The notes: generated from the letters alone by a model not told the origin. Shown: positions 607 through 32,265, counted from the first letter of the stretch. The stretch is DNA of 32,265 nucleotides from an uncultured archaeon (GCA_964469235.1 CAYYKR010000001.1:1-32265); one strand, 5' to 3'. Numbers and translations: made by a program.

Positions 607-2022
607 TTATCCCTTTATAACACCCATGGGTTTTAATCGTGCAACATTCTTTGCAATTCCAGAGCCTTCGCACACTCTTACAACTTCTGAGACGTCTTTG
701 TAAGCTTCTGGAGCTTCTTCCGATAAGACACCTTTAGAACCACCGTGGGCAAATATTCCCTTTTTCTCGAGCTCCTCTAAAATCTGGTTGTCTGTATATC
801 TTTTCAATGCTTTTGTTCTTGACATCGCTCGACCAGCCCCGTGTGCAATTGAGCCGAATGTCTGTTTCATTGCAATCTCGGTTCCAACCATAACATAGGA
901 TTCTGTACCCATTGATCCAGGAAGTAAGACAGGCTGTCCTGCTGATTTGTATTTTTTGGGAACTTCTGGTTCTTCAGGTCCGAACGCCCGTGTAGCTCCT
1001 TTTCTGTGAACGTAAACTTCTTTTTTCTTATTTCCGACAAAATGCTTTCTCTTTTTTACTATGTTATGCGAAAGTCCATAAACGAGTGGAAGGTCATCCG
1101 TCCCAAAAATATTCTTGAATGCCTTTCTGACTAAATGAGAAATCATCTGGCGATTTGCCCATGCAAAGTTTGCAGCAGCTTTCATTGCGTCGAAATACAG
1201 CTCTTCTTCTCTCGTACCAGATGGAGCATATATCAGCTCTCTATCTGGAATTGATTTTGCAACCTTTGGATATTTTTCGATAAGATTCTTTATGAAGTCA
1301 GTAGCAACTTGATGCCCAAACCCCCTCGATCCAGTGTGGATCATTACAACTACTTCATTTTCTTCGAGGCCAAATGTTTTTGATATCTTACCATTGAAAA
1401 CCTTATCAACGTATTGAACTTCTATGAAATGATTTCCAGCTCCAAGCGTTCCAATTTGGTTTATACCACGCGATATAGCCTTTTCACTTACGCCTTTGAG
1501 CTCCGTTTCCATGGCTCCATTTTCTTCTATAAATTTTTTATCTTCTGAAAAGCCGTATCCATTTTCTATCATATATTGAGCTCCGCCTTGTAAAATTTCG
1601 AGAAATTTTTTCTTGCTTAATTTTAATTTCGAATGCTTTCCAACACCAACCGGTACAATACTAGATATTTCATTTATCAGTTTCTTCAACTTTGGTCTGA
1701 CTTCAGAAATATCCATTTTTGTTCTCAGTAATCTTATACCGCAGTTTATATCAAAACCACACATCCCAGGGCTTACACCACCTTCGTTAACATCAAATGC
1801 GGCAACGCTTCCAATGGGAGCTCCATATCCATAGTGCATATCTGGAAGTCCAATTGAATGAAGTTGAATTCCTGGAAGGGATGCAATGTTTGCTAACTGT
1901 TCCATAGAACCGGGATCAACATTTCCAAAGAGTTCATCTGATAAGAACATCCATGCTGGAACTTTCATTTTTCCTTGCATCGGAATCTCGAATATAAAAT
2001 CATCAATCTTTTTTACTTTCAT
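607..2022 (-). CDS. rtcB: tRNA-splicing / RNA 3'-phosphate ligase RtcB
   Basis: Full-length RtcB-like protein with PDMHYGYG, GFDINCG, GAGNHFIE, HTGSRGFGHQ and AHGAGR motifs. The track start at 2034 is TTG. The in-frame ATG at 2022 follows GGTGA (2028-2032 on the minus strand) and is the likelier start. Confidence 0.95.
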   Translation of the reverse strand: MKVKKIDDFIFEIPMQGKMKVPAWMFLSDELFGNVDPGSMEQLANIASLPGIQLHSIGLPDMHYGYGAPIGSVAAFDVNEGGVSPGMCGFDINCGIRLLRTKMDISEVRPKLKKLINEISSIVPVGVGKHSKLKLSKKKFLEILQGGAQYMIENGYGFSEDKKFIEENGAMETELKGVSEKAISRGINQIGTLGAGNHFIEVQYVDKVFNGKISKTFGLEENEVVVMIHTGSRGFGHQVATDFIKNLIEKYPKVAKSIPDRELIYAPSGTREEELYFDAMKAAANFAWANRQMISHLVRKAFKNIFGTDDLPLVYGLSHNIVKKRKHFVGNKKKEVYVHRKGATRAFGPEEPEVPKKYKSAGQPVLLPGSMGTESYVMVGTEIAMKQTFGSIAHGAGRAMSRTKALKRYTDNQILEELEKKGIFAHGGSKGVLSEEAPEAYKDVSEVVRVCEGSGIAKNVARLKPMGVIKG

Positions 2023-2081
2023 TAGAATCACCAATTTAATTTGTTTGATTAATTCTTAAATATTCGTTTCTATTTAAAATT

Positions 2082-2330
2082 ATGGAATTTATTGAAGTGA
2101 TATGGATTTCGGGGATTATAATATCTCTGGTGTTGCTATTGAAAGATATGCCAAATAAAAACATTGGCCCGTCTACCAAAGCATTTTGGATTTTCATGGT
2201 CATAGTTTTCAATGTGTTCGGGCTTCTAATTTATAGAATGTTCACGCCCAGCAGAGCCAGAGATGAAATCAAAGTTAAAAAGCCCAAAATTAAAAAATCG
2301 GTTAAAAGAAAATCAAGGGTGCGAAAATGA
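2082..2330 (+). CDS. small membrane protein, PLDc_N-like (two TM helices plus Lys/Arg-rich tail)
   Basis: 82 aa with two hydrophobic helices. The second (KAFWIFMVIVFNVFGLLIYRMF) resembles the W..I....P/N..G.L.Y pattern of the PLD-nuclease N-terminal membrane domain. The stop overlaps the ABCE1 start (ATGA, 2327-2330). Confidence 0.5.
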   Translation: MEFIEVIWISGIIISLVLLLKDMPNKNIGPSTKAFWIFMVIVFNVFGLLIYRMFTPSRARDEIKVKKPKIKKSVKRKSRVRK

Positions 2331-4072
2331 GGATAGCAGTAGTTAATTATGATAAATGCGATTCTACAAAATGTTCATGGGAATGCATGAAAGTTTGTCC
2401 AATAAATAGAAAGGGAGAAGTTTGCATAAGTGGCGGAGAAGTTATTGTAAATGGCTCAAAGAAAAAAGTTCCGATAATAGATGAATCTATATGCATTGGA
2501 TGCGGATTGTGTACAAAGAAGTGCCCTATGGAGGCAATTAAAATTGTCAACACTCCAGAACAATTGAATGAAACTCCGATTCATAGATATGGAAGAAATG
2601 GGTTTGTTCTTTTCAGACTCCCAATTCCAAAGGTGGGGGTTGTGGGGCTTCTTGGTTCAAATGGAATAGGAAAAACCACGGCGCTTAAAATTCTTGCTGG
2701 CGAATTAAAGCCGAATTTGGGAAATGAAGAATCAAATTGGGATGAAATAATAAGAGCTCACAAAGGTACGGAGCTTTTTAACTACATGAAAAAACTTTCA
2801 AAAGGAAGCATAAAGGCTATTTACAAACCTCAGCAAGTTGATAAAATTCCAAAGTTCATAAAAGGAAAGGTTGAAGATTTGATGAAGGGAGTTTCAAATG
2901 AGATTAAGAGAAAGCTCCATGTAGATAAAATTCAAAATAGAAATTTGAAAAACCTTTCTGGTGGTGAGCTCCAGAGAGTTGCAATAGCAGTAGCTCTTTC
3001 GAAAGAGGGAGATATATTTTATTTTGATGAGCCGACATCGTATTTAGATGTTAAAGAAAGGTTAAATGTTGCTAAGCTCATTAGGGAAAAATCAAGGGAA
3101 TCTCCTATAATAGTTGTTGAACACGATTTGGCAACCTTGGACTTCTTGGCCGATACAGTTCATATATTTTATGGTGTTCCCGGTGCGTTTGGTGTTGTTT
3201 CAAAGCCTTATACAGTTAGAAATGGAATAAATGCATTTTTAGATGGTTATGTGAAAAGTGACAACGTCAGATTTAGAGAGCCCACCGTGTTTGAAAAATA
3301 CAGTCGCATAAAGAAGCGTACAGAATCACTTGTTGAGTTTTCTGATATTGAAAAAACATTTGAAGGATTCAAACTTTTTGTAAAGTCAGGAAAAATATAC
3401 AAGAATCGTGTTCTTGGGATTCTTGGAGAAAATGGACTCGGTAAAACAACATTTATGAAAATACTTGCAGGTGAATACACAGATTTTAAAGGTAGTATAA
3501 ATGAAAAATTGAAAATATCTTACAAGCCTCAATTCATATCGTCTGATTATGATGGAACGGTTTTGTCATTAATTTCTTCAGTTTTCAATCCATACTCTAC
3601 AGAAATAATGAATACAATAATAAAGCCGTTGAAGATAGATAAACTCTTCGAGAAGACTGTTAAAAATCTTTCTGGTGGTGAGCTCCAGAGAGTTTCAATA
3701 GGAATTTGTCTTGGAAGAAAAGCTGATATGTATTTGCTGGATGAACCTTGCGCATATTTGGATGTTGATCAAAGGCTTGCAGTCGCAAGCATATTGAAAA
3801 AGAAAAGCGAAGGAAGCACGGTAGTTGTTATAGACCACGATTTATTGTTCTTGAATTATGTTAGCGATGACACAATGCTTTTTACAGGTGTTCCAAGTGT
3901 TGAAGGTCATGGTGAAGTTATGAGCCTTGAAGATGGCATGAATAAATTCTTGAAAGAAATCGGGATAACATTTAGAAAAGACCCGGAGAACAATAGGCCA
4001 AGGGCAAACAAGCCGGGTTCACAAAAAGACCAGGAGCAGAAATCAAAGGGAAGATACTATTTTATGGTATGA
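2327..4072 (+). CDS. abce1: ABCE1 / RNase L inhibitor-type ribosome-recycling ATPase
   Basis: N-terminal di-cluster Fe-S domain (Cx4Cx3Cx3CP and CIGCGLCTKKCP). Two ABC cassettes: Walker A GSNGIGKT and GENGLGKT, signature LSGGELQRV twice, Walker B FYFDEP and YLLDEP. Confidence 0.94.
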   Translation: MRIAVVNYDKCDSTKCSWECMKVCPINRKGEVCISGGEVIVNGSKKKVPIIDESICIGCGLCTKKCPMEAIKIVNTPEQLNETPIHRYGRNGFVLFRLPIPKVGVVGLLGSNGIGKTTALKILAGELKPNLGNEESNWDEIIRAHKGTELFNYMKKLSKGSIKAIYKPQQVDKIPKFIKGKVEDLMKGVSNEIKRKLHVDKIQNRNLKNLSGGELQRVAIAVALSKEGDIFYFDEPTSYLDVKERLNVAKLIREKSRESPIIVVEHDLATLDFLADTVHIFYGVPGAFGVVSKPYTVRNGINAFLDGYVKSDNVRFREPTVFEKYSRIKKRTESLVEFSDIEKTFEGFKLFVKSGKIYKNRVLGILGENGLGKTTFMKILAGEYTDFKGSINEKLKISYKPQFISSDYDGTVLSLISSVFNPYSTEIMNTIIKPLKIDKLFEKTVKNLSGGELQRVSIGICLGRKADMYLLDEPCAYLDVDQRLAVASILKKKSEGSTVVVIDHDLLFLNYVSDDTMLFTGVPSVEGHGEVMSLEDGMNKFLKEIGITFRKDPENNRPRANKPGSQKDQEQKSKGRYYFMV

Positions 4073-4794: not shown

Positions 4795-4795
4795 C

Positions 4796-5305: not shown

Positions 5306-5804
5306 TTAACAGCACCCCAAAGTGTTTTAATTCGGCTTGGAATCTCATACAGAGCTCCCTTCCATTGTCATATATTTGTTCTCTCTTTCTTTTGTAAAAT
5401 ATAGTGTCCCAGAGCTTTCTTATGACTTCATAAAAAACGCTTTGCTGCCATGCGTAATCTTGTGGAAATTCGGTTACAACTCTCGGCTCAAACACTATTG
5501 CTGCCTTTCCATATCCATTTTCAGAATATCCCTTGAGACTGAGCTCCATGTCTAAGTATGTCCATCTGTCGTAAGGTTTGAACAATTCCCAAGAAATTTT
5601 GAATTTATGACCATTTTCAGTTTTTTTCCAATTGTACTCCTTTTCTTGGATGTAGGAATCTGGAACGGCAAAAATCTTTTTTAGCAGTTCATTTATCTTT
5701 ACATAGAACTTTTCAGGATGTTTTCCTTCAAATCTAAAATATATCTTTTTTATGGGTGGGAACAAATCCTCCCATATAGTAAGTCTAGTCCTTGCCCATA
5801 CCAT
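5295..5804 (-). CDS. hypothetical protein, 169 aa (paralogue B of a tandem pair)
   Basis: First gene of the minus-strand chain. ATG at 5804 is preceded by GGTG with 6-nt spacing. Paralogous to 4796-5305. Confidence 0.65.
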   Translation of the reverse strand: MVWARTRLTIWEDLFPPIKKIYFRFEGKHPEKFYVKINELLKKIFAVPDSYIQEKEYNWKKTENGHKFKISWELFKPYDRWTYLDMELSLKGYSENGYGKAAIVFEPRVVTEFPQDYAWQQSVFYEVIRKLWDTIFYKRKREQIYDNGRELCMRFQAELKHFGVLLNES

Positions 5805-5847
5805 TAAAACACCTATTATTTTTATACTTTCAATAACATAAATAATT

Positions 5848-6213: not shown

Positions 6214-8094
6214 ATGGCAAAACCTATTACTCGAAGATATCTGCTCGATAATAGCTATTTCGATCATGGACTTAGAGATGCCGGTGTACCGCATGCTCCA
6301 GCAAATTTATTTGGACCGTTTGGAAAGTTCAAAGGTTATGCATGGGTATCGCAACCATTGGAAGGGTATTCAAACATAGTTTACATTTCTAGTCCTGGAA
6401 AAACGAGGACGGTATTTAATGGACTTATGGATTGGATGGACCAAAACAAATGGAAGAATATAGTGTTTGACAAATCAATTGAAGTGACGCCAACTCACAC
6501 AAAGTTATATCAGAGTGTTATAGGTCAGAAGTATGAGCTTCAGGCAAGGATAAAACAGGCACTTGTTTCCATATCTCAATCTGTTGCAGATTTGGAACTC
6601 TTAGAGCATGATATAAGAAAGTATGAGGAATTTGATGAATATTTGAAGGGTATGGATACAGATGTCAATCATGTAAGGGATAAAAAAGAGAAGAAGGAGC
6701 TCGAGAGAAAGAAAAAATTTTCTGAGATGGCTATAAAAACAGTTTTTGTAGATCAAGTCGATTATCATTCTGGCGGGACTGGACAAGGTCCCGGAAGGCT
6801 AAGTATGGCATTTATGAGAAACAACAACATAATGCCAACAATAGTTGATGATTTTATGATTATGGGCGGACCAGATGATTTGGACAATGGTCCGTTAAAA
6901 AATTTGTCAACAGTCGAGAAGAATATGCTTCGTATAAAATGGAAAGCATATCAAGCATGGCTATCAAGCTTTAGGAATGAGGTTGAAAGTAGATTGGGCA
7001 GACTCACTCAACTTAGAATGAGCAGGGAGAAAACACTCGATGAATTTAGGGAATGGGTCAAGCCAATTATATCGAGAGAACTTGCAATAAAGGAAGGATT
7101 CTCTGAAGAAGGAAATAGAACATTTGAAAATATAATTGGAACCGAATATTCATCTTTGGGAGAGGCTACCGCTCAGACTTATAACAATATATTATCATTT
7201 CATAGACTTTCAATTGAAGAAGTTCAAAAGACGCCATCTGAAATGTATGAAATGGCAAGCGAAAAAATTTCCGAGCTTGATTTGAAAAACATATACGATA
7301 GCATGTCTGAAATACTTGTTCTTGATGAAAATGTTGGGCTTAGAGTAAAATATCCGTGGATAACAAAAGCATGGGTAGATAGTGTTAAAGGAGATTGTAT
7401 TTCAAGGGTCAAGAGTTTAATGCTGAAAGGATTTTCAAGATATCTAATTATGTCAAATATAAGATATATGACAAGAAATACGATATATCGTGGTGAATTT
7501 GAAGTTGAAATTGGTGTGTACTTGATTGACACATTCATGATAACACCAAATATAGCAGTTGTAAAAATGATAGAGCAAAAGGCTAAGGATGAAGAGATAA
7601 AGAGATATATAAATCAAATGCTCGGACTTAAAGATGATAGAAGGACCTTAACTTATACAATAAAAAATGGAAGATATGTTGTGAATAAAGAAAATGTAAA
7701 AAAAGTCGTTAGAGATGGTGGCGACGAAAAATCTGGTTTTAAAAATTATGATGAATTGATAGAAAAATATCCGGAAAGTAGATATAAACTTAGATTTACT
7801 CCTGAAGGTGAAAATGGAACGCTTAAAGAAATTAGAAATGTATTCAACTTCAAATTTGATTTCCTAAATCATTTGTTTCCAACGCATCCAGGTGAATATT
7901 TTTCAAGTGATTATGGAGATTATATCTACAACAAATTTAGAAAAATGAAAGGCAGGGGCATGTTCTTCTCATCAACACCTTACGATAAGGACTTCTTTGA
8001 TAGGGTTGCACAATTCCATATGGTTATTACGGGAATAAATAACGGCAAGATACGTGGGAAAATTCAAAGTCTTATGGGCGTTCCGGGAATTTAG
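6214..8094 (+). CDS. large hypothetical protein, 626 aa, no family recognised
   Basis: Uninterrupted 626 codons with protein-like composition. Charged helical segment about residues 125-175 and a Gly-rich SGGTGQGPG loop at residues 186-194. Confidence 0.7.
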   Translation: MAKPITRRYLLDNSYFDHGLRDAGVPHAPANLFGPFGKFKGYAWVSQPLEGYSNIVYISSPGKTRTVFNGLMDWMDQNKWKNIVFDKSIEVTPTHTKLYQSVIGQKYELQARIKQALVSISQSVADLELLEHDIRKYEEFDEYLKGMDTDVNHVRDKKEKKELERKKKFSEMAIKTVFVDQVDYHSGGTGQGPGRLSMAFMRNNNIMPTIVDDFMIMGGPDDLDNGPLKNLSTVEKNMLRIKWKAYQAWLSSFRNEVESRLGRLTQLRMSREKTLDEFREWVKPIISRELAIKEGFSEEGNRTFENIIGTEYSSLGEATAQTYNNILSFHRLSIEEVQKTPSEMYEMASEKISELDLKNIYDSMSEILVLDENVGLRVKYPWITKAWVDSVKGDCISRVKSLMLKGFSRYLIMSNIRYMTRNTIYRGEFEVEIGVYLIDTFMITPNIAVVKMIEQKAKDEEIKRYINQMLGLKDDRRTLTYTIKNGRYVVNKENVKKVVRDGGDEKSGFKNYDELIEKYPESRYKLRFTPEGENGTLKEIRNVFNFKFDFLNHLFPTHPGEYFSSDYGDYIYNKFRKMKGRGMFFSSTPYDKDFFDRVAQFHMVITGINNGKIRGKIQSLMGVPGI

Positions 8095-8110: not shown

Positions 8111-10072
8111 ATGGTAGAATTTGATGAGTATGGAAAACCTAAGGGATATATTATTGCGGCTAGTCCTGGGTTTAGTCAATTTGGTCAAGGTATGGAAAAG
8201 CTGACATTTTCCGGACTTGCAAGAAAAATAAGTAAAGCTGCCAGACTTGGTTTTGAATTTGCTATGATAGATTATGAAGCTCTTTCAGAAATGTATGAAC
8301 CCAATATAGGCGAGCAGGTTAAAAGGATGAAAGAATCTGAAAAAATGGAGGTAGGGCTTCACTTACCAATCACTTTAGACCTAACACTTGCAACATCTTT
8401 CAACTGGAGTATAATGCATGATATTCTTCAGCGCGGTGCATATTCAGGAAAGGATATAATGGGAGCTCGGTTTGTTTTGGTGCATGCATCATCGTATCCA
8501 AAGCCCGGCATAGTTTTCAGACTTGGCCAGAGAGAATATCCAGAAAAGCTCTGCGCACATGATGGAACCAATCTTGGAGAATTTATGGAGTTAGTTGACG
8601 ATGGGGTATACAACGACCCCGCGCGTGGAAATATAAAACTTTCAAATGGCCGTCGATTGAAAGACTGGTTCATGGGAAAATTCATAAAAATTCTTTTTAG
8701 TGCTATGGGTGTACCTGGTGATGTTCCAATAATAACTTACTTTGATGAAATGTCGTACAATGATGTTTATTTTGCTGAAGCTGTTAAAAAGGCAAAGCAA
8801 TTTGTTTCTGATGTTGAAAAGAGGAAAGACGAGTATGTTACAAAAAGGATGGATGAACTTATAAAAGAGGCAAATTCAATAGAAAAACAAATTAGGGACA
8901 TGGAGAAGAAAAGCGACCTTACAGAAGAAGAAAGGTCAGTATATGAAAATCTAAAAAATAAATACATTAGTTTGAGACACGATATAGACTTGGGAAACAA
9001 TAAATTCGCAAATGAATTTTTTAACAACATGGATAAAGATGAAATTAAAAAGTACATGGAGAGAAAGCGTGTAATAGAAACCGTTGAAAGATACGAATTC
9101 AATCATGTTTACGATTATTGGAAATACAATGGGTCTCAAGCGGAAGAAAATGTTGCCTATAGAGTTATTGCTAAATACATGTACCTTACCGGAGATCCAA
9201 TATGGCTCGATATAATCGGTGATATTGATCCTGACCATATAATAGATGCAGATAATAAAGTGAGAACTGCTCCTGAATTGAAGGGAAAGAAGAACAAGGA
9301 TATAAAAGAACTTGTTGATAAATTCATAATTGCCGTTGCAATAAAATATATTCAAGGCCATCTATTTTCAACTTCAACTGGAAAGGGCATGGAGAGGTAC
9401 GGATTCAACGGCTCTGTTTATGATTATTTGACTAAAAACAAGATAAGAATTTACTTTGAGAATTCTCCCCCTCTAAAAGAAGGGAGTGGAGAATTGAGAA
9501 TATCGTCCGTCATGGGATTGATAGATATTGCAAAGGAGATTGACAATGGAACATTTATTTCTGCTGCCGTGGATACCGAGCATTTGATGTCAAATCTCTA
9601 CTCTCCTTATGAACAGTTTTCATCTATTCCAGATGGATATGGAAAATACATTACGATGCTTCATATAAATGGACCGCGTCCAATTCATCCAACCCACTCG
9701 CCAATTTTTTTATACTCTCCAGACATGGAAATTATTTACAAATGGCTTTACACATTGAAAAAGAGAGGGATGACATCAGCATATTTTGTTTGGGAAATGG
9801 GGTCATATGGAGTTCGGGAGAGTGCTATAGCAATGAGACTTATAAGAAATGAGCTCTCAAAAGAAAATCCTACACCCCCAGATAAACTTCCACCAGAATT
9901 TTTCGGTATGGATGAAACATTCGATGCACGCCAAATGGTTGCCATACGTGAACATGCGTTTGACCCTCTCGAAGGTCTTATAATGGTCCCAGAAGAAAGT
10001 CATACATTCTTGTCTACGGCTGCTAAATCCAAAGGAGGGTTGGCAGTTTGGAACAAGGAGAAGTACTCATGA
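8111..10072 (+). CDS. EndoIV / xylose-isomerase-like TIM-barrel protein with large charged helical insertion (tentative)
   Basis: An ordered series of motifs resembles the AP-endonuclease-2/sugar-isomerase barrel metal ligands: EFAMIDYE, VGLHLP, FVLVHASSYP, then about 250-300 aa of K/E-rich sequence, then RIYFEN, AAVDTEHL, MLHINGP, HPTHSP, YFVWEMG. The track start at 8099 is TTG; the ATG at 8111 follows GGTG with 6-nt spacing. Confidence 0.5.
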   Translation: MVEFDEYGKPKGYIIAASPGFSQFGQGMEKLTFSGLARKISKAARLGFEFAMIDYEALSEMYEPNIGEQVKRMKESEKMEVGLHLPITLDLTLATSFNWSIMHDILQRGAYSGKDIMGARFVLVHASSYPKPGIVFRLGQREYPEKLCAHDGTNLGEFMELVDDGVYNDPARGNIKLSNGRRLKDWFMGKFIKILFSAMGVPGDVPIITYFDEMSYNDVYFAEAVKKAKQFVSDVEKRKDEYVTKRMDELIKEANSIEKQIRDMEKKSDLTEEERSVYENLKNKYISLRHDIDLGNNKFANEFFNNMDKDEIKKYMERKRVIETVERYEFNHVYDYWKYNGSQAEENVAYRVIAKYMYLTGDPIWLDIIGDIDPDHIIDADNKVRTAPELKGKKNKDIKELVDKFIIAVAIKYIQGHLFSTSTGKGMERYGFNGSVYDYLTKNKIRIYFENSPPLKEGSGELRISSVMGLIDIAKEIDNGTFISAAVDTEHLMSNLYSPYEQFSSIPDGYGKYITMLHINGPRPIHPTHSPIFLYSPDMEIIYKWLYTLKKRGMTSAYFVWEMGSYGVRESAIAMRLIRNELSKENPTPPDKLPPEFFGMDETFDARQMVAIREHAFDPLEGLIMVPEESHTFLSTAAKSKGGLAVWNKEKYS

Positions 10073-23621: not shown

Positions 23622-24541
23622 TGGTAAAGGTAATATCTTTTGGCGAGGCTCTTATTGATATGATAGGCGAGCGTGGTAAAGGCTTGGACGGAACTAAATT
23701 ATTTGAAAAACATTTCGGTGGAGCTCCAGCAAACTATGCAATAGCAGTTAGGCGACTTGGTGTAAAGTCATCTCTCCTAACGCGCATAAGTGATGACAAT
23801 TTTGGCAATTTTTTGATGAATATATTGAAGAAAAATAAAGTAGACACATCCATGATTGTTAGGACAAAAAAGAAAACCACACTTGCATTCGTTTCTTTGA
23901 ATAAAAGCGGAGTTCCAGAATTTTCATTTTATAGAAACGATACGGCTGATTTGGATGTAAGAAAGAGTGATATAAAGGAAAAATACTTTGATGGTGTAAA
24001 GATATTTCACTTTTGTTCTCTATCACTCGTTGAAGAACCTGTGAGGTCTGCACTTTTTAAGGCATTGAAGATAGCTAAAAGAAAAAACGTTCTCATATCT
24101 TATGATCCAAATCTTAGAAGAGATTTGATGAAAAGAGATACTATGAAATACGTTAGGAAGGCTGCAAAGTATGCTGATATCCTTATTCCATCCGAGGACG
24201 AGATAAGGAAAATCACGAATGAGACATCATTGGATTCCGCTGCAAATCATTACAAGGGAAAGAGATTGATAGTGACAATGGGAGCAAAAGGTTCTGTTAT
24301 GTACTATGCTAAATCAAAGATAATATTTCCTCCATTTAAAGTGAAAGTTGTTGACACAACCGGAGCTGGAGATGCATTTTCTGCCGGTGTATCCGTTGGA
24401 ATTATAAATGGATACGAAGGAGAAAAGTTACTTAAATTTGCATCTTCTGTTGCTGCATTGTCCATACAAAAGAAAGGTGCAATATCATCTCTTCCGAGCA
24501 TTATAAATGTTAAGAAATTTCTTAAAAAATACGAAAGATAA
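23621..24541 (+). CDS. PfkB-family sugar kinase (fructokinase/KDG-kinase-like)
   Basis: VISFGEALIDMI N-terminus, GGAPANYA, DPNLR, VVDTTGAGDAFSAG anion-hole/catalytic motif. Start overlaps the HAD stop (TAATG). Confidence 0.85.
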   Translation: MVKVISFGEALIDMIGERGKGLDGTKLFEKHFGGAPANYAIAVRRLGVKSSLLTRISDDNFGNFLMNILKKNKVDTSMIVRTKKKTTLAFVSLNKSGVPEFSFYRNDTADLDVRKSDIKEKYFDGVKIFHFCSLSLVEEPVRSALFKALKIAKRKNVLISYDPNLRRDLMKRDTMKYVRKAAKYADILIPSEDEIRKITNETSLDSAANHYKGKRLIVTMGAKGSVMYYAKSKIIFPPFKVKVVDTTGAGDAFSAGVSVGIINGYEGEKLLKFASSVAALSIQKKGAISSLPSIINVKKFLKKYER

Positions 24542-24542: not shown

Positions 24543-25688
24543 TTACTTTCTGTTTTTGATTAGTTCGAATGTTATTTCTTTGCTTCTCTCAACTTCAGGT
24601 TGGTCAAACGGATTTTGTTCTCTCAATATCGCTGAATAGTATGCTATGTACTGCCACATTGCCATAAGTTTTCCAACATTATCTTCAGAAAGTTTGTCCA
24701 ACTCTATCACGGCATATGGTATTTTTTCCTCAGATGATGTTTTTACAACTCCTTCAGATTCGTAATTTATCGCATTTGAAAGATTTAGCCCATTTAAAAT
24801 TGATATACTGCCTTCTCTAAGTTTAACATCAGAAATATTTTTTGGAACTTTTATTTTTATGCCCTTATGATTTTTAATGACTATGAATATTCCAATCATA
24901 TTTTTGGGTCCACCAAAAAATCTTTGATTGGTATGATGCTGAGATTCTGGAGCTATGGCAGAAATTATTGTCTGACCAACTTCATTCTTTCCGGTTGTTT
25001 CATGAATTAGTTGGGTAATTATTTTTGCAAACCCGTCCATAAACTCGGAATATATCGGCATGAAAATTTCATTGTATCCATTTTCTTCCAACAAGAATAA
25101 TGATTTTGAGAATTTGTACAGGCTTCTTTTTATTTTTTCAGATTTGTAAATTTTCTTTGCGCCGTTATATATTTTTTTCACGTCAATCCCACACACAGCT
25201 GCTGGGAAAAGACCACATGATGATAATCCTGCAAATCTACCTTCGATGTCTGGATGTTTCACTATGTTCCATTTCATTCGTTTGGAAATTTCGAGGAGAG
25301 CTCCTCCCCCCGCTACAGAAACGATGTTGGTAAATTTTTTGTTGATGAAGTATAAAAGTTCTTCCAAAACTCCAACCGTGTCTCCAGATTTACTTATAGG
25401 AATTACTACGGTGTCTTCGGGGTTGCATTTTTTGGATACATCTTCGAGGAATTCTGGTTCCATTGTATCGATAAAATAAACATTTCTCTTTGGACGGAGA
25501 GCCCTTGAAAACGCTCTAAAACTGTTTATTGAACCGCCGTTTCCTATGACGACAACATTTTTGAATTTCTCATACCTTTTTGAAATCTTTATAATTTCTT
25601 TGAAGTTTGGAATGTGTTTTGAAAATTGAGGGTCATGTGGTAATTTTCCAACTTTAACACTTGGCAACTTTTCGTATATATTTATCAT
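24543..25688 (-). CDS. pgi: glucose-6-phosphate isomerase (short archaeal PGI/SIS type)
   Basis: VVVIGNGGSINS, PISKSGDTVGVLE, GRFAGLSSCGLFPAA (PGI signature 1-like), QHHTNQ, NPFDQPEVERSK (signature 2-like). Confidence 0.85.
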   Translation of the reverse strand: MINIYEKLPSVKVGKLPHDPQFSKHIPNFKEIIKISKRYEKFKNVVVIGNGGSINSFRAFSRALRPKRNVYFIDTMEPEFLEDVSKKCNPEDTVVIPISKSGDTVGVLEELLYFINKKFTNIVSVAGGGALLEISKRMKWNIVKHPDIEGRFAGLSSCGLFPAAVCGIDVKKIYNGAKKIYKSEKIKRSLYKFSKSLFLLEENGYNEIFMPIYSEFMDGFAKIITQLIHETTGKNEVGQTIISAIAPESQHHTNQRFFGGPKNMIGIFIVIKNHKGIKIKVPKNISDVKLREGSISILNGLNLSNAINYESEGVVKTSSEEKIPYAVIELDKLSEDNVGKLMAMWQYIAYYSAILREQNPFDQPEVERSKEITFELIKNRK

Positions 25689-25697
25689 AGATATCGC

Positions 25698-26708
25698 CTA
25701 TATAATTTTTTTCTTAATTGAAAATTTTTTACCGTTAATAAACTTTTTAATTTCTGATTCTGTTGGATTCCCGGACTTGGCACCAATATATTTACTCTGT
25801 ACATGGATAGCTCCAGCGGCGGATGCGTATTTTAATATTTTTTCAGGTTCCAAATGATTTATCAATCCATATATGAACCATGCTGCGGCACAATCTCCAG
25901 CTCCGGTTGTATTTTTCACATCAGCTACTTTGAACGATTTTGCAATGTATAAATTCTTCGCATCAAAATACATTATTCCATTCTTCCCCAAAGTTATGAA
26001 ACAATTTTTCAATCCTTTAGATTTGAGAGCTCTCAATTTTTCAATACTAAACTTTCCGAAGAGAAGCTCAAATTCTCCAATATTAAATGAAGATGCATCT
26101 GCCTTCATAAGAAGTTTCTTGACTTCTTTTGGAAATTGGTATATCATCGTTCTGCTTGGAGCAAAGAAAATTTTTCCTTTTCGAATTTTTGAATCAAATA
26201 TATACTTTATGGAATTAACTGCTGACTTTCCAGTGAAACTTGTTATGTCGAGCCATTTTGACGAGAAAATAAATTTCGATTTCTTTTTAACATCATTTAC
26301 TGTGAGCTCAGATGCAGAGCCGTGGTCAACTATGAGTGTTGTATCCTTTGTCTTTTCTGAAATTAATATAAGTGACCTTCCAACTTCAAGTCCACGCTGT
26401 TGTATTACATTGCTCATATCAACTCCATGATTTTTCATATCCATTATCATGAATTCTGATAATTTGTCTTTTCCAAGTTTCGTAAAGTATCCTGTTTTAA
26501 GACCGAGCTTAGAGAGATAGGAAACTGTATTTCCTGATGACCCACCAGAATGGATGTACACTTTTCCTTTTGTTTTCTTTCCGAGTGGAAACATTATGTA
26601 CTTTTCTATTCCACGCTTGTCTGATTCTATCATATAGAATTTTGAATCTGTAAAAATATCTATTGTGAGAGACCCTATTCCGATGATGTCATAAGATTTA
26701 TTAACCAT
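25698..26708 (-). CDS. PfkB-family carbohydrate/nucleoside kinase
   Basis: YDIIGIGSLTIDIF, GGSSGNT, NTTGAGDCAAAWFIYG. The track ORF runs to 26771 but its first 21 codons lie inside tRNA-Ala. ATG at 26708 (MVNKSYDIIGIG) is the first start outside the tRNA. Confidence 0.85.
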   Translation of the reverse strand: MVNKSYDIIGIGSLTIDIFTDSKFYMIESDKRGIEKYIMFPLGKKTKGKVYIHSGGSSGNTVSYLSKLGLKTGYFTKLGKDKLSEFMIMDMKNHGVDMSNVIQQRGLEVGRSLILISEKTKDTTLIVDHGSASELTVNDVKKKSKFIFSSKWLDITSFTGKSAVNSIKYIFDSKIRKGKIFFAPSRTMIYQFPKEVKKLLMKADASSFNIGEFELLFGKFSIEKLRALKSKGLKNCFITLGKNGIMYFDAKNLYIAKSFKVADVKNTTGAGDCAAAWFIYGLINHLEPEKILKYASAAGAIHVQSKYIGAKSGNPTESEIKKFINGKKFSIKKKII

Positions 26709-26710
26709 AG

Positions 26711-26803: not shown

Positions 26804-26837
26804 GATGAGATTTGATACATGTAATTGTATTTTAAAT

Positions 26838-27350
26838 TTATAAATCAATTCTCTTAAAATTATTTTTTTCAAGAACTTTTACAATAATATACGACATTCC
26901 AATTCCAAGAAGAGCTCCAGCAATAACATCTGTTAAATAGTGGACTCCAAAATAAATTCGCGATAATCCAACCAGGGTTGCAAGAGTATAAAATATCTCT
27001 GGATGCTTAAAATATTTTGAGAGAACATAGGCAAATGAAAATACTACAGCGGTATGCTGGCTCGGAAATGAATAGTCGATAATTTTAGTAAATGACATGT
27101 ATAATATCTGATGAAATGGTCTCGGTTCTTTTACCACGAACTTTATAATTATCGCTGATATCCACGATATTGATGATGACCATAGTATTGAAATTGTTTC
27201 TTTCTTCTTTTTCAAAATCACAAGAATTATAATGGTTACTACGAGAGATGGAACGAAGGAATACGCTATGAGTTTGAATAAGAAATCTGTAATGGGGTTT
27301 CTTATTGATTGAATATACGACATGTAATATGGAGAATTTTCTAGAATCAT
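26838..27350 (-). CDS. PAP2-family membrane phosphatase (undecaprenyl/dolichyl-diphosphatase-like)
   Basis: KEPRPF, PSQH, SRIYFGVHYLTDV, the three PAP2 motifs, within about 5 TM helices. ATGA overlap with the archease stop. Confidence 0.85.
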   Translation of the reverse strand: MILENSPYYMSYIQSIRNPITDFLFKLIAYSFVPSLVVTIIILVILKKKKETISILWSSSISWISAIIIKFVVKEPRPFHQILYMSFTKIIDYSFPSQHTAVVFSFAYVLSKYFKHPEIFYTLATLVGLSRIYFGVHYLTDVIAGALLGIGMSYIIVKVLEKNNFKRIDL

Positions 27351-27766
27351 ATGTCAAGCACCACCTGAGCTGTCCATTCGTTTTTCTTTTTGACTTCAAG
27401 TTTATGATATGTGCAAGATTTTACATCGTGCCGTGGCTCGTGTTTCTTCTTGTCGAATTTCTCGCCGTATCCAATTGCATTTAATTTATATTTACCCGTT
27501 GATTTGTCTTCGATTATTTTAACTTTGAAATCTTTGAAAAACATATTTTTGGAATCTTTTTCATATATTAGTTCATTTAGCCATAAAAAAAGGAGCTCCC
27601 TTAAATCCTTTGCAGAGAGCTCGAATTTTTTTTCGAATTTCTTTTCAATCCCACCAACCATGTAGTTTTCAAGAACTTTTGCAGCGGTTTTAAACAACTT
27701 ATTTAAAGAATTCTCTCTAACTATAACGGCAACATCAGCTGTTGACCAATCTTCAAAATGATACAT
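27347..27766 (-). CDS. archease (RtcB activator)
   Basis: N-terminal FEDWSTADVAVIV (H/S-TAD motif) and C-terminal VKSCTYHKLEVKKKNEWTAQVVLDI, about 140 aa. Confidence 0.88.
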   Translation of the reverse strand: MYHFEDWSTADVAVIVRENSLNKLFKTAAKVLENYMVGGIEKKFEKKFELSAKDLRELLFLWLNELIYEKDSKNMFFKDFKVKIIEDKSTGKYKLNAIGYGEKFDKKKHEPRHDVKSCTYHKLEVKKKNEWTAQVVLDI

Positions 27767-27820
27767 GATAATAAGTTTAAAAAGAAGTTATTTAAAATTA
27801 AATGTAAAATAAAATAAGAG

Positions 27821-28108: not shown

Positions 28109-28109
28109 T

Positions 28110-29804
28110 ATGATGTTTGACATCATAAGTAAGATTCTTGGCAAGAATAAAAAAAATAAGCTGAAATATACTCAAAGTAATACTCGTGCTTCTCAACTTA
28201 TAAGCTTAATACGGGGAAACTATATTCCAAAAAAAGAAATGATTGCTCAATCTCAAGAATTTAAATTAGATCCCCACTTTCCAAAATTTGTTGTAAAATC
28301 AGATAAGCACATATACAATTTGCAAGATGTAACGAAAGAACATTCTGTAAAGTATCCATTGATAGAACCTTATGCTTATGTCAATATTGCCTGGAATCAT
28401 TCAAACGATGAAGTTATTTACAATGTAATTGAGCCTATTCTATCTCCAAGTGAGAAAGAAATGTTGAAAAAAATTACAGATGGATTAATTCAAACTATAG
28501 ATGTTGGATTGACTCACATAAAAAATGGATATTTCTTAACGCAATATCTTGAATCAAAAGTTCAGGGCATAATTAAAGAATACAAAATGAAAATAACTCC
28601 CATTCAATATCTTAAAATCATGTACTATATATACAGAAATTTTGTTGGACTCAATAAAATCGAACCTCTGATGCACGATCCCTATATAGAAGATATAGGT
28701 TGCGACGGAATAAACATTCCAATATACATAGTTCATAGAAAATACGGGTCTGTAAAGACGAATATAATCTTTACGGATGAGGAGGATCTTCGAGAGTTTG
28801 TCGTAAAATTGTCTGAAAAGTGTGACAGATATATAAGTTATGCTGAACCTCTCTTAGACGGAGCTCTTCCGGACGGTTCCAGAGTACAAGCATCACTTGC
28901 AAAGGACGTTACTACAAATGGACCGACATTTTCAATAAGAAAGTTTAAAGAGATTCCATTTACACCCATAGAAATGATAAAGGACAAGACACTGTCATCT
29001 GAAATGCTTGCCTATTTGTGGTTTTTAGTTGAAAACGGCTCGAACATATTGATATGCGGTGGGGTATCAACCGGTAAGACGACCCTTTTAAATACGATAT
29101 CGATGTTTATACCCCCGGAAGCCAAGATAGTTTCAATTGAGGATACTCGCGAGTTAAATCTGCCCCACGAAAATTGGATACCTTCTGTGTCAAGAATTGG
29201 ATTTGGAAGCTCTACAGTTGGGGAAGTTTCCATGTTTGAGCTCTTAAAAGAATCCTTCAGACAAAATCCCGACTATATTATAGTAGGTGAAGTTAGAGGT
29301 AAGGAAGCTTACATATTGTTTCAGGCTATGTCATCTGGGCATCCGTCAATAGCAACTATGCATGGGAGTTCAACAGATGCGATAATGAAGCGTCTTGAAA
29401 CTCCACCAATAGAATTGCCGGTAGGATTACTTGAATCCTTAGATATAATTATAATAATGATACATGCAAGGGAAAAGGGAAAGTCTGCAAGGAGATTAAA
29501 AGAAATTGATGAGATAAGGTCTATCGATTCCGAGAGCGGGAAGGCAAATTATTCAAAAGTTTTCAAATGGATTCCGTCCAACGATACATTTGAATTTTCT
29601 GGAACATCGTGGGTTCTTGAAAAGATTTCCAAGAACAAGGGAATTCCAATGATTGAAATAAAAAAGGAGCTTGTACGCAGAAAGAAATTTATCGATTGGA
29701 TGCACGATTCTGATATAACTGAAATGAATAGAATATCGAAATTCATTCAGATGTATTACAAGGATAAAAAGAAGATGATGGAAATAATTGAAAATAATTC
29801 TTAA
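28110..29804 (+). CDS. FlaI/PilB-type (GspE/VirB11 superfamily) archaeal type IV filament assembly ATPase
   Basis: YPLIEPYAYVNI...YNVIEP N-domain, Walker A GGVSTGKTTLLN, Asp box IVSIEDTRELNL, Walker B PDYIIVGEVRGKEA, His box SGHPSIATMHG. ATG lies 2 nt after the S26e stop. Confidence 0.88.
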   Translation: MMFDIISKILGKNKKNKLKYTQSNTRASQLISLIRGNYIPKKEMIAQSQEFKLDPHFPKFVVKSDKHIYNLQDVTKEHSVKYPLIEPYAYVNIAWNHSNDEVIYNVIEPILSPSEKEMLKKITDGLIQTIDVGLTHIKNGYFLTQYLESKVQGIIKEYKMKITPIQYLKIMYYIYRNFVGLNKIEPLMHDPYIEDIGCDGINIPIYIVHRKYGSVKTNIIFTDEEDLREFVVKLSEKCDRYISYAEPLLDGALPDGSRVQASLAKDVTTNGPTFSIRKFKEIPFTPIEMIKDKTLSSEMLAYLWFLVENGSNILICGGVSTGKTTLLNTISMFIPPEAKIVSIEDTRELNLPHENWIPSVSRIGFGSSTVGEVSMFELLKESFRQNPDYIIVGEVRGKEAYILFQAMSSGHPSIATMHGSSTDAIMKRLETPPIELPVGLLESLDIIIIMIHAREKGKSARRLKEIDEIRSIDSESGKANYSKVFKWIPSNDTFEFSGTSWVLEKISKNKGIPMIEIKKELVRRKKFIDWMHDSDITEMNRISKFIQMYYKDKKKMMEIIENNS

Positions 29805-29807
29805 ACA

Positions 29808-31070
29808 TTAAATTGTAAATTTATTGTCAATTGCCAACGGGCTCGAGCCAGCGTGCCATGACTGACGTGGATGGACTTGAACCTTATAAATTCTCTCTGA
29901 ATTGTCGTCAAGAACCAATGCAACCCCTTTATTTCTTGGCAAATCGTTTAGATATTTTTCTATATCGAACAACATATAAGTTTGCATTATCGCTTTCAAT
30001 GCTTCTATATCTGATTTCGAGGTGAGTCTGTGGGATATTATTAAATCACTCTGTGCTATAACATCTGGATGAAGTTTATTCGGCCTTTGAGTCGCAAATA
30101 CAGTTGAAACTCCAGGTTGCCTACCTTCCTTTACAATCCTCAAAAGTATATCTGATGATGCAACCTTTCCCACATTTGGTACAAAGTTATGAGCTTCGTC
30201 TATAAAAATCCAGCAAAGCGGAACTCTTTTTATGTCTTCGTTTTCAACTCTGGCGAGCTCTTCAAGTCGGCGAGCTTTAATTCGGTCTTCAAGAACTTTT
30301 TTCAAGACAAGCGATACTAAAAGCGTTCTGACAACTGACGGTGTCATAGAAACATCAAGTATGGTAACTTTTTCGGGCTCGAGAATCTTTGGCATCAAAC
30401 TTTCTCCAAATATTCCCCACATTTTTGCCGCGAGAAATCTATTTTCAAGCGCGAGCTTTTCCTTTTCGAACCCTTCTTCCTTTTTTATGTTCTTTATTAT
30501 CTCTTCGATGTCATATGGTTTGTCGTAATTCTTTTTCATTTTCGTAATTACTCTTTCAAGAAGTATTCCCAATGTATCGTTTATTCCTAAATCAAAAACG
30601 TAGAGCCAGTCATCTGGACCTAGCTCCGATGGTGAAACTGAGAACGTTCCGTCAAAATTGACCCCGGCCCCTTCAAATAATTCTTTCTGACCGTGCGGAA
30701 TGTAAACCTTGACATCAAATCCACTTGGTTTCATTCCCCATTTGGCAAGCATTTGTTTAGATTCATCGTTCGGGTATTTCATCGTCCAAAAAATACCTTG
30801 AGTGTCTATCATTAAGGAACATAAATTTTTTCTTACATCTTTTTCAATTTTTTTCATCTCTTCAACAAAGACTCCGAGTGTGTAACTTTTTCCACCCCCT
30901 CGCTTTCCACAAATTATCATACAGTGAGGCCGTAGAACGTCAACTAGAATTGGAGAAGTTAAGTGAGCATCCTCTCCGGTTCCCACGATATGCTTTCCTA
31001 AAAATATGGTTCCCTTTTCTCCGAATCTTTCCAAATCTTTCATATCGCGTCCTATAACAACATTTGGCAT
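29808..31070 (-). CDS. HerA-like (DUF87) FtsK/HerA-superfamily ATPase
   Basis: Walker A CGKRGGGKSYTLG, Walker B WIFIDEAHNFVP, VFATQRPNKL...IISHRL. 420 aa. No NurA-like partner in the window. Confidence 0.8.
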   Translation of the reverse strand: MPNVVIGRDMKDLERFGEKGTIFLGKHIVGTGEDAHLTSPILVDVLRPHCMIICGKRGGGKSYTLGVFVEEMKKIEKDVRKNLCSLMIDTQGIFWTMKYPNDESKQMLAKWGMKPSGFDVKVYIPHGQKELFEGAGVNFDGTFSVSPSELGPDDWLYVFDLGINDTLGILLERVITKMKKNYDKPYDIEEIIKNIKKEEGFEKEKLALENRFLAAKMWGIFGESLMPKILEPEKVTILDVSMTPSVVRTLLVSLVLKKVLEDRIKARRLEELARVENEDIKRVPLCWIFIDEAHNFVPNVGKVASSDILLRIVKEGRQPGVSTVFATQRPNKLHPDVIAQSDLIISHRLTSKSDIEALKAIMQTYMLFDIEKYLNDLPRNKGVALVLDDNSERIYKVQVHPRQSWHAGSSPLAIDNKFTI

Positions 31071-31123
31071 TTAATCTCCTTTATATAATTTTACACGATA
31101 AATTAAATAGTTTTGGTGATTGA

Positions 31124-31417: not shown

Positions 31418-31419
31418 AT

Positions 31420-32037
31420 TCACAAAATTACAAATAGTGCAAGAGAAGTCAAAAATATCATGGACCAAACTTTCCAGCTGTAAAAGAATATTTTTGAGCC
31501 GTCCAACGGTGGTATCGGTATTAAGTTGAACACGGCAAGCCATATATTTATTCCAACTGAATATGTTAAAATACTATTTGCAATACTCGCCGATGAAAGT
31601 GGTATTAATTTTAGAGCAGCAAAAGATATTAGCGCTAGTATTATATTTATCACTGGACCGGCAGCTGAAATTATTGCATTTTCTTTTCTTGTTATCCTTT
31701 TTACATTACCCCAAAGGTCAATGCTCGGATAAATTACAACAGCACCCGGAGCTGCGAATGTAAAATTTCCATTTGTTATTATTGCAAATATAAATGCGAG
31801 AAATAATCCGTACTTCCACATTTCAAAACGTGCATAGCATCCAAATTTTCTTGCATAGTACCTGTGCCCCATTTCATGAAATATAAAAGCAAATGATATC
31901 GCAAACAATGATATTAAAAAGTTTTTTGGTAATGAAGATAAATTTTGTATTCCCCTGTATGCAAAAACGAACGCCAATACCACTGCAGATATCAAAAGAT
32001 CTGTCAATTCTTTTTTATCCATGATTTTGTTAATCAA
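31420..32037 (-). CDS. site-2 protease family (M50) membrane metalloprotease
   Basis: HEMGHRYYARKFG (HExxH) and NLIPIPPLDGSKI second motif, multi-TM. Confidence 0.85.
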   Translation of the reverse strand: MINKIMDKKELTDLLISAVVLAFVFAYRGIQNLSSLPKNFLISLFAISFAFIFHEMGHRYYARKFGCYARFEMWKYGLFLAFIFAIITNGNFTFAAPGAVVIYPSIDLWGNVKRITRKENAIISAAGPVINIILALISFAALKLIPLSSASIANSILTYSVGINIWLAVFNLIPIPPLDGSKIFFYSWKVWSMIFLTSLALFVIL

Positions 32038-32084
32038 TTAAAAGATTTAAATAAAATTATGTTTAAAATAACTATGCTATTTAT

Positions 32085-32265
32085 AGCGGGGTGGAGCAGC
32101 CTGGAGTGCTCGTCGGGCTCATAATAAGGGCGCCGAATGCCCTTATCAACCTTTTCCATCAAGAAGGAAAAGGGTGCTTTCTTAAAAGGAAGGAAGACGA
32201 AGAGCTCATTGCTCATCGCCTTATGAGAAACCCGAAGGTCAATGGTTCAAATCCATTCCCCGCTA
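32085..32265 (+). tRNA. tRNA-Met (CAU), initiator-type, with 106-nt intron; ends at the window edge
   Basis: AGCGGGG/CCCCGCU acceptor with A1:U72. Anticodon stem UCGGG/CCCGA has three G:C pairs next to the loop. Anticodon CAT at 32120-32122. T-arm AATGG-TTCAAAT-CCATT. Discriminator A is the last base of the window. Confidence 0.88.
32124..32229 (+). other. tRNA-Met intron (106 nt) with canonical bulge-helix-bulge
   Basis: 4-bp helix 32118-21/32224-27 between 3-nt bulges UAA (32122-24) and AAA (32228-30). Outer helix 32125-32/32217-23. Internal 8-bp hairpin CCTTTTCC(32150-57)/GGAAAAGG(32166-73). Confidence 0.8.

Follow-up and report, generated by a model that had tools for sequence, protein, structure and literature searches.

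The sequenced region and its GAGCTC sites

The DNA described here is an archaeal stretch of 32,265 nt (34.6% G+C, 93% coding; hereafter the window), and our subject is the six-base palindrome GAGCTC, which occurs in it 41 times. The ENA metagenome scaffold SONG20-1_SAMN10739806_METAG-scaffold_101 (37.2 kb) matches the window at 99.9% identity, and the nearest relatives in genome collections carry the label Candidatus Aenigmatarchaeota (a DPANN phylum); judged by these matches, the window is a metagenome scaffold of a Candidatus Aenigmatarchaeota. Its genes are core housekeeping genes, namely those for RtcB, ABCE1, RpoD and the ribosomal proteins S3Ae, S15, L7Ae, S13, S4, S11, L18e, L13 and S9, together with a RecJ/GAN-like nuclease, the RFC large subunit, aIF2-beta, RNase P subunits, archease and sugar kinases. 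FlaI/PilB-type and HerA-like ATPases are encoded as well.

An exact search returned the same 41 starts that a hand scan in the initial annotation had given, none missing and none extra, and reading them against the called genes reproduced its frame split: 25 sites in frame 0, 14 in frame 1, 1 in frame 2 and one in a tRNA-Met intron. The sites are listed below in window coordinates, with the extent and strand of each gene in brackets. Sharing is taken from codon alignments of orthologues, and L numbers are our labels for syntenic loci of relatives, which are introduced in the section on the clade.

769..774, RtcB (607-2034, -), frame 0, Glu-Leu; same column in all six clade orthologues
1498..1503, RtcB, frame 0, Glu-Leu; this lineage only, relatives NL/DP/DA
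1578..1583, RtcB, frame 1, Gly-Ala-Gln; common to L123/L043
1818..1823, RtcB, frame 1, Gly-Ala-Pro; in all six clade orthologues
2754..2759, ABCE1/RLI (2327-4072, +), frame 1, Arg-Ala-His; unique, relatives GIH/KVH/GVH, so made by amino-acid change
2966..2971, ABCE1, frame 0, Glu-Leu of the first LSGGELQR signature; common to L002/L126, polymorphic
3680..3685, ABCE1, frame 0, Glu-Leu of the second LSGGELQR signature; common to L002/L126/L001, outgroups GAGTTA/GAGCTT/GAGCTG
5352..5357, conserved hypothetical 169-aa gene (5295-5804, -), frame 0; common to L001
5541..5546, same 169-aa gene, frame 0; unique, relatives EI/DI
6697..6702, hypothetical 626-aa gene (6214-8094, +), frame 0; common to L126
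8463..8468, hypothetical 657-aa gene (8099-10072, +), frame 1, Gly-Ala-Arg; unique
9851..9856, same 657-aa gene, frame 0; unique, L125 GAACTC, L126 GAGCTT
10422..10427, nucleotidyltransferase-domain gene (10144-11391, +), frame 2, Met-Ser-Ser; sisters FTE/FTD
11128..11133, same nucleotidyltransferase-domain gene, frame 0; sisters RA/AA
11769..11774, ribosomal protein S3Ae (11626-12270, -), frame 1, Arg-Ala-Leu
12112..12117, S3Ae, frame 0; sister GAACTT at the same Glu-Leu
12663..12668, ribosomal protein S15 (12378-12830, +), frame 0; sisters KI
13252..13257, RIO kinase (12919-13527, +), frame 0; sisters KN
13535..13540, RecJ/GAN-like nuclease (13532-14818, +), frame 0, codons 2-3
13886..13891, RecJ/GAN-like nuclease, frame 0
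14504..14509, RecJ/GAN-like nuclease, frame 0
15661..15666, ribosomal protein S13 (15600-16040, +), frame 1
16803..16808, ribosomal protein S11 (16562-16966, +), frame 1
16842..16847, S11, frame 1
17684..17689, RNA polymerase subunit D (16963-17733, +), frame 1
19515..19520, RFC large subunit (19266-20378, -), frame 0
20214..20219, RFC large subunit, frame 0
20616..20621, aIF2-beta (20403-20831, +), frame 0
22083..22088, RNase P p30 subunit (21771-22523, -), frame 0
22911..22916, 313-aa gene (22680-23621, +), frame 0
23721..23726, PfkB-family kinase (23621-24541, +), frame 1
25298..25303, glucose-6-phosphate-isomerase-like gene (24543-25688, -), frame 1
26027..26032, second PfkB-family kinase (25698-26747, -), frame 1
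26304..26309, second PfkB-family kinase, frame 0
26912..26917, PAP2 phosphatase (26838-27350, -), frame 1
27593..27598, archease (27347-27766, -), frame 0
27617..27622, archease, frame 0
28861..28866, FlaI/PilB-type ATPase (28110-29804, +), frame 1
29238..29243, FlaI/PilB-type ATPase, frame 0
30255..30260, HerA-like DUF87 ATPase (29808-31070, -), frame 0
32202..32207, intron (~106 nt) of tRNA-Met(CAT) (about 32085-32265, +); the only non-coding site

The window sequence at 32196-32210, GACGAAGAGCTCATT, corresponds precisely to a gap of 100 N in the ENA scaffold, and site 32202 therefore rests on a gap-closed assembly.

Abundance of GAGCTC

Base composition alone predicts 3.0 sites in the window, in agreement with the first estimate of about 3 per 32 kb. 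One hundred dinucleotide-preserving shuffles gave a mean of 3.61 (sd 1.72, maximum 8), none of them reaching 41, and Markov models of order 1, 2 and 3 predict 3.8, 5.2 and 17.6; on the whole scaffold the order-2 model gives z = 17.8. GAGCTC has the highest observed/expected ratio (O/E, 13.5) of all 4096 hexamers in the window, the next palindrome being TCCGGA at 3.6. Its one-mismatch neighbors are as scarce as the hand counts had suggested, with 27 for GAGCTT plus AAGCTC (about 27 by hand), 13 for GAGCTG plus CAGCTC (about 12) and 10 for AAGCTT (about 8).

The initial annotation had named an O/E near 1 under a high-order Markov model as a result that would undo its claim, and the order-4 model, which predicts 31 sites against the 41 seen (O/E 1.3), formally approaches this. 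We reject that null as self-referential, because its conditioning 5-mers come mostly from GAGCTC itself: the window has 61 GAGCT and 68 AGCTC, and in each case 41 of them lie within the hexamer. The probability that C follows GAGCT is 0.67 in the window vs 0.08-0.12 in genomes of sister lineages.

GAGCTC is a trait of one clade

Syntenic loci were retrieved for comparison, and ABCE1 identity to the window was used as the measure of distance. ABCE1 identity, G+C content and GAGCTC O/E are as follows.

L130, scaffold tail: 100%, 35% G+C, O/E 15.0
L123, L043, L124: 79%, 30-32% G+C, O/E 12.2, 12.3, 5.6
L125: 73%, 44% G+C, O/E 5.7
L002, L126: 72% and 71%, both 49% G+C, O/E 10.8, 11.0
L001: 70%, 47% G+C, O/E 12.1
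Sisters L127, L128, L129, L132, L133, L135: 57-61%, 34-42% G+C, O/E 1.0, 1.3, 0.6, 1.4, 0.3, 1.1
GC-richer sisters L044, L134: 53% and 57%, with 43% and 56% G+C, O/E 2.4, 2.7
About 115 loci of other archaea and bacteria: 23-53%, pooled O/E about 0.8

The clade loci come from different samples and assemblies, with L043 and L124 representing the same species as L123 in other samples; together they hold about 115 kb of DNA in five species-level lineages, from which the genome-wide extent of the trait is extrapolated. The eight sister loci belong to seven lineages of Aenigmatarchaeota with ABCE1 identity of at most 61% and the gene order of the window. Every locus with ABCE1 identity of at least 70% is enriched, and O/E runs from 5.6 to 15 across 30-49% G+C. 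Orthologous genes taken alone carry 14 sites in 9.75 kb of the scaffold vs 1 in 9.48 kb of sister L127. The GAGCTC excess is a trait of one Aenigmatarchaeota clade, independent of G+C.

No alternative hyper-abundant word, of the kind by which the cyanobacterial and uptake-sequence systems discussed below differ among lineages, was found in the sister lineages. The two GC-richer sisters are intermediate, also in the probability that C follows GAGCT (0.41 in L044 and 0.43 in L134); this could be an effect of codon usage or a weak form of the trait.

The cause acts on DNA and not on coding

A coding or RNA cause would be a codon-pair preference, a favored peptide or a GAGCUC signal in mRNA. Genes do hold 40 of the 41 sites and frame 0 (Glu-Leu) dominates among them; the first of these facts is unremarkable, because 93% of the window is coding. 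Synonymous shuffling within genes (n = 3000), which preserves the proteins and per-gene codon counts, gave 6.7 ± 2.4 sites (maximum 16) vs the 40 observed in genes, with 3.2 expected vs 25 in frame 0 and 2.8 vs 14 in frame 1. Since the sites themselves inflate GAG, CTC and GCT usage, a second null was added in which the scaffold proteins were recoded at the codon frequencies of a sister lineage matched in G+C, and this gave 6.0 ± 2.3 vs 52 on the whole scaffold. The two nulls thus fall short 6- to 9-fold. GAG-CTC writes 25 of the 80 Glu-Leu dicodons in the window (4 of 9 in RtcB and ABCE1, as first counted), where GAG makes up 27% of Glu codons and CTC 13% of Leu codons, and xGA-GCT-Cxx writes 14 of the 18 Gly/Arg-Ala-[LPHQR] tripeptides.

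All three reading frames are used, giving unrelated peptides, and frame preference shifts with G+C among genomes, with frame 2 in use among the GC-richer clade members. Glu-Leu is coded GAG-CTC in 36% of cases in the scaffold, 16% in L123, 29% in L125, 64% in L126 and 67% in L001; the sisters L127-L129 use it in 4% and the GC-richer L044 in 17%. The tripeptide [GR]-A-[LPHQR] bears GAGCTC in 75% of cases in the scaffold and 86% in L123 vs 0 of 24 in sisters, and x-Ser-Ser (frame 2) in 8 of 24 in the GC-rich L126 vs 1 of 54 in sisters. Sister lineages do not write these proteins with GAGCTC. Sites show no positional bias along genes and follow no one-per-gene rule (31 genes with a site vs 29.3 expected), and an RNA signal need not be a DNA palindrome. 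Taken together, the shuffle, frame-use and sister-codon results effectively refute a coding or RNA cause, which we consider extremely improbable. The initial proposal of a DNA-level rather than a codon or dipeptide cause is upheld by the synonymous shuffle, the sister-codon recoding, the use of three frames and the 14 vs 1 sites in orthologues.

Codon alignments of 22 orthologue groups show a few universal sites (RtcB 769 and 1818), several common to part of the clade and many that are lineage-specific. Many of the latter stand where relatives have other residues (KV/KL to EL, SF to EL, NL to EL, GIH/KVH to RAH), and GAGCTC therefore arises by non-synonymous as well as synonymous change. The Glu-Leu dipeptide itself has an O/E of 1.2-1.7 in the clade (1.44-1.73 in the scaffold, L126, L001 and L002) vs 1.0-1.35 in sisters. 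The pressure for GAGCTC is strong enough to recruit amino-acid replacements.

Definition of the word and signatures of repair

GAGCTC alone is enriched, with no other GDGCHC member, so a general enrichment of the GDGCHC family is rejected. A longer hidden motif or repeat element is likewise rejected, as the flanks have no similarity beyond a weak K-GAGCTC-M preference that adds little. The tetranucleotide GATC is strongly avoided both in the clade and among the nearest sisters (maximal-order Markov O/E 0.15-0.54 in the window, L123, L125, L126, L001, L127 and L129), L044 being an exception, and avoidance of CTAG (0.21-0.67) is confined to the clade. Such avoidance is the typical signature of restriction and the opposite of what GAGCTC displays; the latter, 13.5-fold enriched in the window, is not under restriction-type avoidance.

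A neutral repair ratchet would need no function at all: a Vsr-like enzyme, or the methyl-dependent mismatch repair proposed by Elhai, would convert near-matches to GAGCTC faster than mutation destroys the word. A model of this kind has already been proposed for HIP1, the highly iterated palindrome (HIP) GCGATCGC of cyanobacteria. The mild rise of AAGCTC/GAGCTT (O/E 2.28 in the clade vs 1.67 in sisters, other outer one-base variants not being raised) is as expected around an abundant word, and the sharing of sites between genomes, described in the next section, equals independent refilling of permissive positions. Against it, correction of T:G to C:G at the inner cytosine should deplete the precursors GAGTTC and GAACTC, and these are not depleted: their O/E is 0.82 and 0.93 in the window, and the pooled value for the clade is 1.55, compared with 1.10 for the sisters. 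The mismatch-correction drive suggested in the initial annotation is disfavored, in its simple Vsr-type form, for this reason. Many sites, moreover, differ from relatives at several bases and change residues, for which single-mismatch correction is ill-suited, and no Vsr gene was found in the reachable clade DNA. The effect of Vsr on CCWGG in Escherichia coli is far smaller than 13-fold. We therefore judge a neutral ratchet to be rather improbable.

Sharing, spacing and regional distribution of sites

Between the scaffold and L126, four-fold third positions are 28.5% identical and so saturated, yet where the amino acids are conserved GAGCTC is shared at 8 of 11 positions vs 18% of control hexamers identical (P = 1e-4). 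The corresponding figures are 6 of 7 vs 24% for L125-L126 (P = 0.001) and 10 of 12 vs 53% for L126-L001 (P = 0.03). The same sharing test was used by Xu, Lawrence and Durand to argue for selection on HIP1 (PMC5861425). Here, joint GAGCTC use at positions where both genomes have Glu-Leu is simply the product of each genome's usage (8 vs 7.5 expected; 3 vs 2.9), and position-specific conservation is rejected, since sharing equals the independent expectation. The pressure for GAGCTC is thus strong, continuing and present at every permissive position, and it acts on overall density with no sign of favored positions. Because sharing amounts to independent filling, these data alone cannot separate selection for density from a biased conversion or repair drive.

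The initial annotation had reported a largest gap of about 2 kb, which measures 1947 bp, and had asked whether spacing is regular. In this scaffold it is more even than random (coefficient of variation 0.65, P = 0.003 in the window, with a largest gap of 1.9 kb vs 3.3 kb expected; 0.65-0.69, P = 0.002-0.003 for window and scaffold), but this regularity does not extend to L001, L125 or L123. Site density also varies regionally in L123, where 13 of 33 permissive contexts are filled in the 9.5 kb upstream of ABCE1 and none in the following 8 kb (P = 0.002 at equal G+C). The site-free 8 kb is also present in L043 and L124, whereas in the orthologous stretch 8 of 26 contexts are filled in the scaffold and 13 of 25 in L126. 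Regional heterogeneity or introgression could account for it.

An abundant chromatin or architectural protein, that is, a clade-peculiar dimeric nucleoid-associated protein that binds GAGCTC, could produce selection for site density in the service of chromosome organization, without methylation. A palindromic word at a density that is high and, in this scaffold, fairly even would suit such a protein, and for HIP1 a role in nucleoid structure is the one that Xu et al. favor (PMC5861425). The reachable clade DNA yielded no candidate protein, however, and neither the lack of general even spacing nor the 8 kb of L123 devoid of sites is in its favor. Known nucleoid proteins, furthermore, rarely read a strict hexamer. 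We consider this explanation decidedly improbable.

Site 2966 is polymorphic in the source population, with GGT GAG CTC CAG in the window and GGA GAA CTT CAA in the ENA assembly. These four synonymous differences in 10 bp are among 28 single-nucleotide polymorphisms (SNPs) in 26.4 kb, and the window version of 2954-2983 shares 27 nt without a mismatch with the segment for the second ABCE1 signature (3668-3697), 714 bp downstream. The match suggests that site 2966 was made by short-patch intragenic gene conversion. SNP events between the two assemblies (window 1-14072 and 19808-32195) lie within 25 bp of GAGCTC in 4 of 17 cases vs 6.4% of the sequence (P = 0.02); this clustering was not replicated in the pairs L123/L043, L123/L124 and L126/L002.

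Such observations bear on a drive of the kind known for the uptake signal sequences (USS) and DNA uptake sequences (DUS) of bacteria, in which an uptake or recombination machinery prefers fragments that carry GAGCTC, so that alleles from relatives spread, with or without methylation. The density of 0.7-2.6 sites per kb resembles that of USS and DUS; sites lie in all frames and at poorly conserved residues, with recruitment of amino acids; spacing is more even than random in this scaffold; and the four-substitution patch at site 2966, by its match to a paralogous segment, indicates that sites may move by short-patch conversion. The regional heterogeneity of L123 could reflect recombination history, HIP1 is itself now proposed to act as an uptake sequence, and a PilB/FlaI-type ATPase and a HerA-like translocase lie side by side in the window. 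On the other hand, known uptake sequences are 9-12 bp long and non-palindromic, and six bases give little specificity; even spacing is absent in L001, L125 and L123; the SNP clustering near sites failed to recur in the three other pairs; and both ATPases are generic and of housekeeping type, with no membrane partner beside them. An uptake or recombination drive appears to us unlikely, though not negligibly so.

A methyltransferase-linked palindrome as the favored explanation

Continuing DNA-level pressure fills a large share of permissive coding positions in all three frames and on both strands. A perfect six-base palindrome indicates that duplex DNA is read by a protein with two-fold symmetry, and we infer this protein, methylation and any function of the sites from what is observed, namely the word itself with its statistics, the distribution over the clade, the occupancy of permissive positions and the recruitment of amino acids. 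By analogy with the HIPs, the likeliest agent would be a DNA methyltransferase peculiar to the clade, with GAGCTC or the central AGCT as its target, coupled with a methylation-dependent process such as recognition of self DNA in recombination or uptake, or discrimination of strand or self in repair. A high density of modified sites would then be advantageous, and sites would be held at mutation-selection balance wherever the proteins tolerate them. We tentatively favor the view that GAGCTC is a lineage-specific, methyltransferase-linked word of the HIP type kept at such a balance, and give it a little less than an even chance.

Enzymes of the required kinds are known. There are m5C (5-methylcytosine) methyltransferases specific for GAGCTC, such as M.Sgr13350I (PMC11275837), Dcm-like enzymes that methylate GDGcHC occur in a DPANN archaeon (PMC11001535), and orphan AGCT m4C (N4-methylcytosine) methyltransferases persist in other archaeal orders (PMC10609329). 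Among cyanobacteria, alternate HIPs co-occur with cognate methyltransferases (PMC4390886).

Several findings weigh against a methyltransferase-linked word. No gene for a DNA methyltransferase, restriction endonuclease or Vsr was found in the roughly 115 kb of clade DNA (window, scaffold tail, L001, L123, L125 and L126), although this is a weak negative because 115 kb is a small fraction of each genome; the S-adenosylmethionine-dependent methyltransferases encoded there are small class-I enzymes only, and are present in sisters too. Restriction-modification targets are normally avoided and not enriched, and the DPANN archaeon that methylates GDGCHC has only 140 sites. Under a pressure uniform along the genome one would not expect the 8 kb of L123 (9700-17518, with ABCE1 and five downstream genes, the orthologue of window 2327-10072) in which 0 of 19 permissive contexts are filled, and even spacing was not seen outside this scaffold (L001, L125, L123). 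Non-coding DNA amounts to only 0.4-1.6 kb per locus, with expected counts below 0.1, and is too scarce for an enrichment test.

A more specific version of the favored explanation is that GAGCTC is a methylated self tag, with which a host-dependent DPANN archaeon would separate self from host or foreign DNA in import, recombination or repair. This we regard as speculative and rather unlikely.

Comparison with known systems

HIP1 and the alternate cyanobacterial HIPs resemble GAGCTC in being perfect palindromes that are hyper-abundant, occur about once per gene and use several coding frames. They are lineage-wide traits with losses and replacements in sub-lineages, and codon usage does not explain them (PMC4390886, PMC5861425). 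HIP sites, like those of GAGCTC, are kept between genomes far above control words, but the sharing of GAGCTC is fully explained by independent refilling. For HIP function, methylation, repair-ratchet, nucleoid and uptake hypotheses have all been proposed (PMC4390886, PMC5861425). In its over-abundance, codon-independence, lineage sharing and retention GAGCTC is a HIP as Elhai (2015) broadly understood the term. One-base deviants of a HIP would be biased toward the ends of the word; among the outer variants of GAGCTC only AAGCTC/GAGCTT are raised. It is not HIP1 proper, because word, length, domain of life and magnitude differ: GAGCTC has six bases and not eight, is 5.6-15-fold and not 15-300-fold enriched, and belongs to an archaeal DPANN clade below the phylum level. 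The sequences are unrelated, GAGCTC being built around AGCT and the HIPs around GATC/CGATCG, and in the clade DNA reached no cognate methyltransferase was found. HIP1 is periodic on a scale of 10-90 kb; the longest contig of the GAGCTC clade is 37 kb.

The USS of Pasteurellaceae and DUS of Neisseriaceae are likewise lineage-specific, present about once per kb, and placed in genes in the least costly frames with effects on peptides; their more-even-than-random spacing is matched in this scaffold only. They differ from GAGCTC in being 9-12 bp long and asymmetric, and in having a known receptor and competence machinery, whereas the clade shows only generic PilB/FlaI-like and HerA-like ATPases.

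Type II targets of SacI specificity (M.Sgr13350I) and the GDGCHC methylation of the DPANN archaeon Ca. Nanohalococcus occultus concern either GAGCTC itself or a family to which it belongs. Restriction-modification enzymes typically read six-base palindromes, and such enzymes occur in DPANN, but the sparse GDGCHC sites of Nanohalococcus and the usual avoidance of restriction targets contrast with the more than 10-fold enrichment of GAGCTC in the clade. Finally, Vsr/Dcm action on CCWGG in E. coli is a case in which sequence-specific repair raises the frequency of a methylated palindrome; there the effect is small and accompanied by depletion of T-containing precursors, unlike the more than 10-fold excess with undepleted precursors reported here. 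A full-text literature search found no report of GAGCTC over-representation in archaea or of HIP-like words in DPANN.

Other features of the region

The FlaI/PilB-type ATPase directly adjoins the short HerA-like DUF87 ATPase (window 28110-31070). The latter has its best defence-library hits in HerA and, over the full length, in mad8 of the MADS system, and it matches CedD weakly; neither a membrane partner nor a methyltransferase is adjacent to the pair.

At 4062-4352 on the minus strand lies a gene for a 96-aa protein that consists of the Ogt/MGMT C-terminal DNA-binding domain alone (PF01035), with PCQR in place of the active-site PCHR. It adjoins ABCE1 in the scaffold, L125, L126, L001 and L002, and is not at that position in L123 or the sister lineages. 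Two neighboring 169-aa genes (4796-5804) and the adjacent 626-aa and 657-aa genes (6214-10072) have no Pfam, NCBIfam or PADLOC match. The order of this block beside ABCE1 is kept in all Aenigmatarchaeota loci examined.

There are three tRNA genes with introns, at 17780-17878 (+), 26711-26803 (-) and about 32085-32265 (+). The first two are called as tRNA by Rfam and received no assignment from ARAGORN. The third, tRNA-Met(CAT), was missed by Rfam and identified by direct reading of its acceptor, D, anticodon and T arms; its intron of about 106 nt is at the canonical position, and the window stops at the discriminator base.

Significance

HIPs have been known in cyanobacteria for some thirty years without an agreed function, and have been essentially a phenomenon of one phylum, which has limited comparative tests. 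The GAGCTC clade provides a second, independent instance, in another domain of life, with a different word and over a wide range of G+C (30-49%). Its sharp on/off boundary between syntenic sister lineages opens the question of function to phyletic profiling and methylome sequencing, and GAGCTC density is a cheap marker for binning contigs of the clade. Were GAGCTC a self tag, no uptake- or self-recognition sequence would have been described in archaea before it, and it would parallel HIP1 as an independent, convergent case. For the organism itself, the finding means that codon choice and even residues in core genes (ABCE1, RtcB and ribosomal proteins) of a symbiont with a reduced genome can be remodeled by a DNA word of a few bases.

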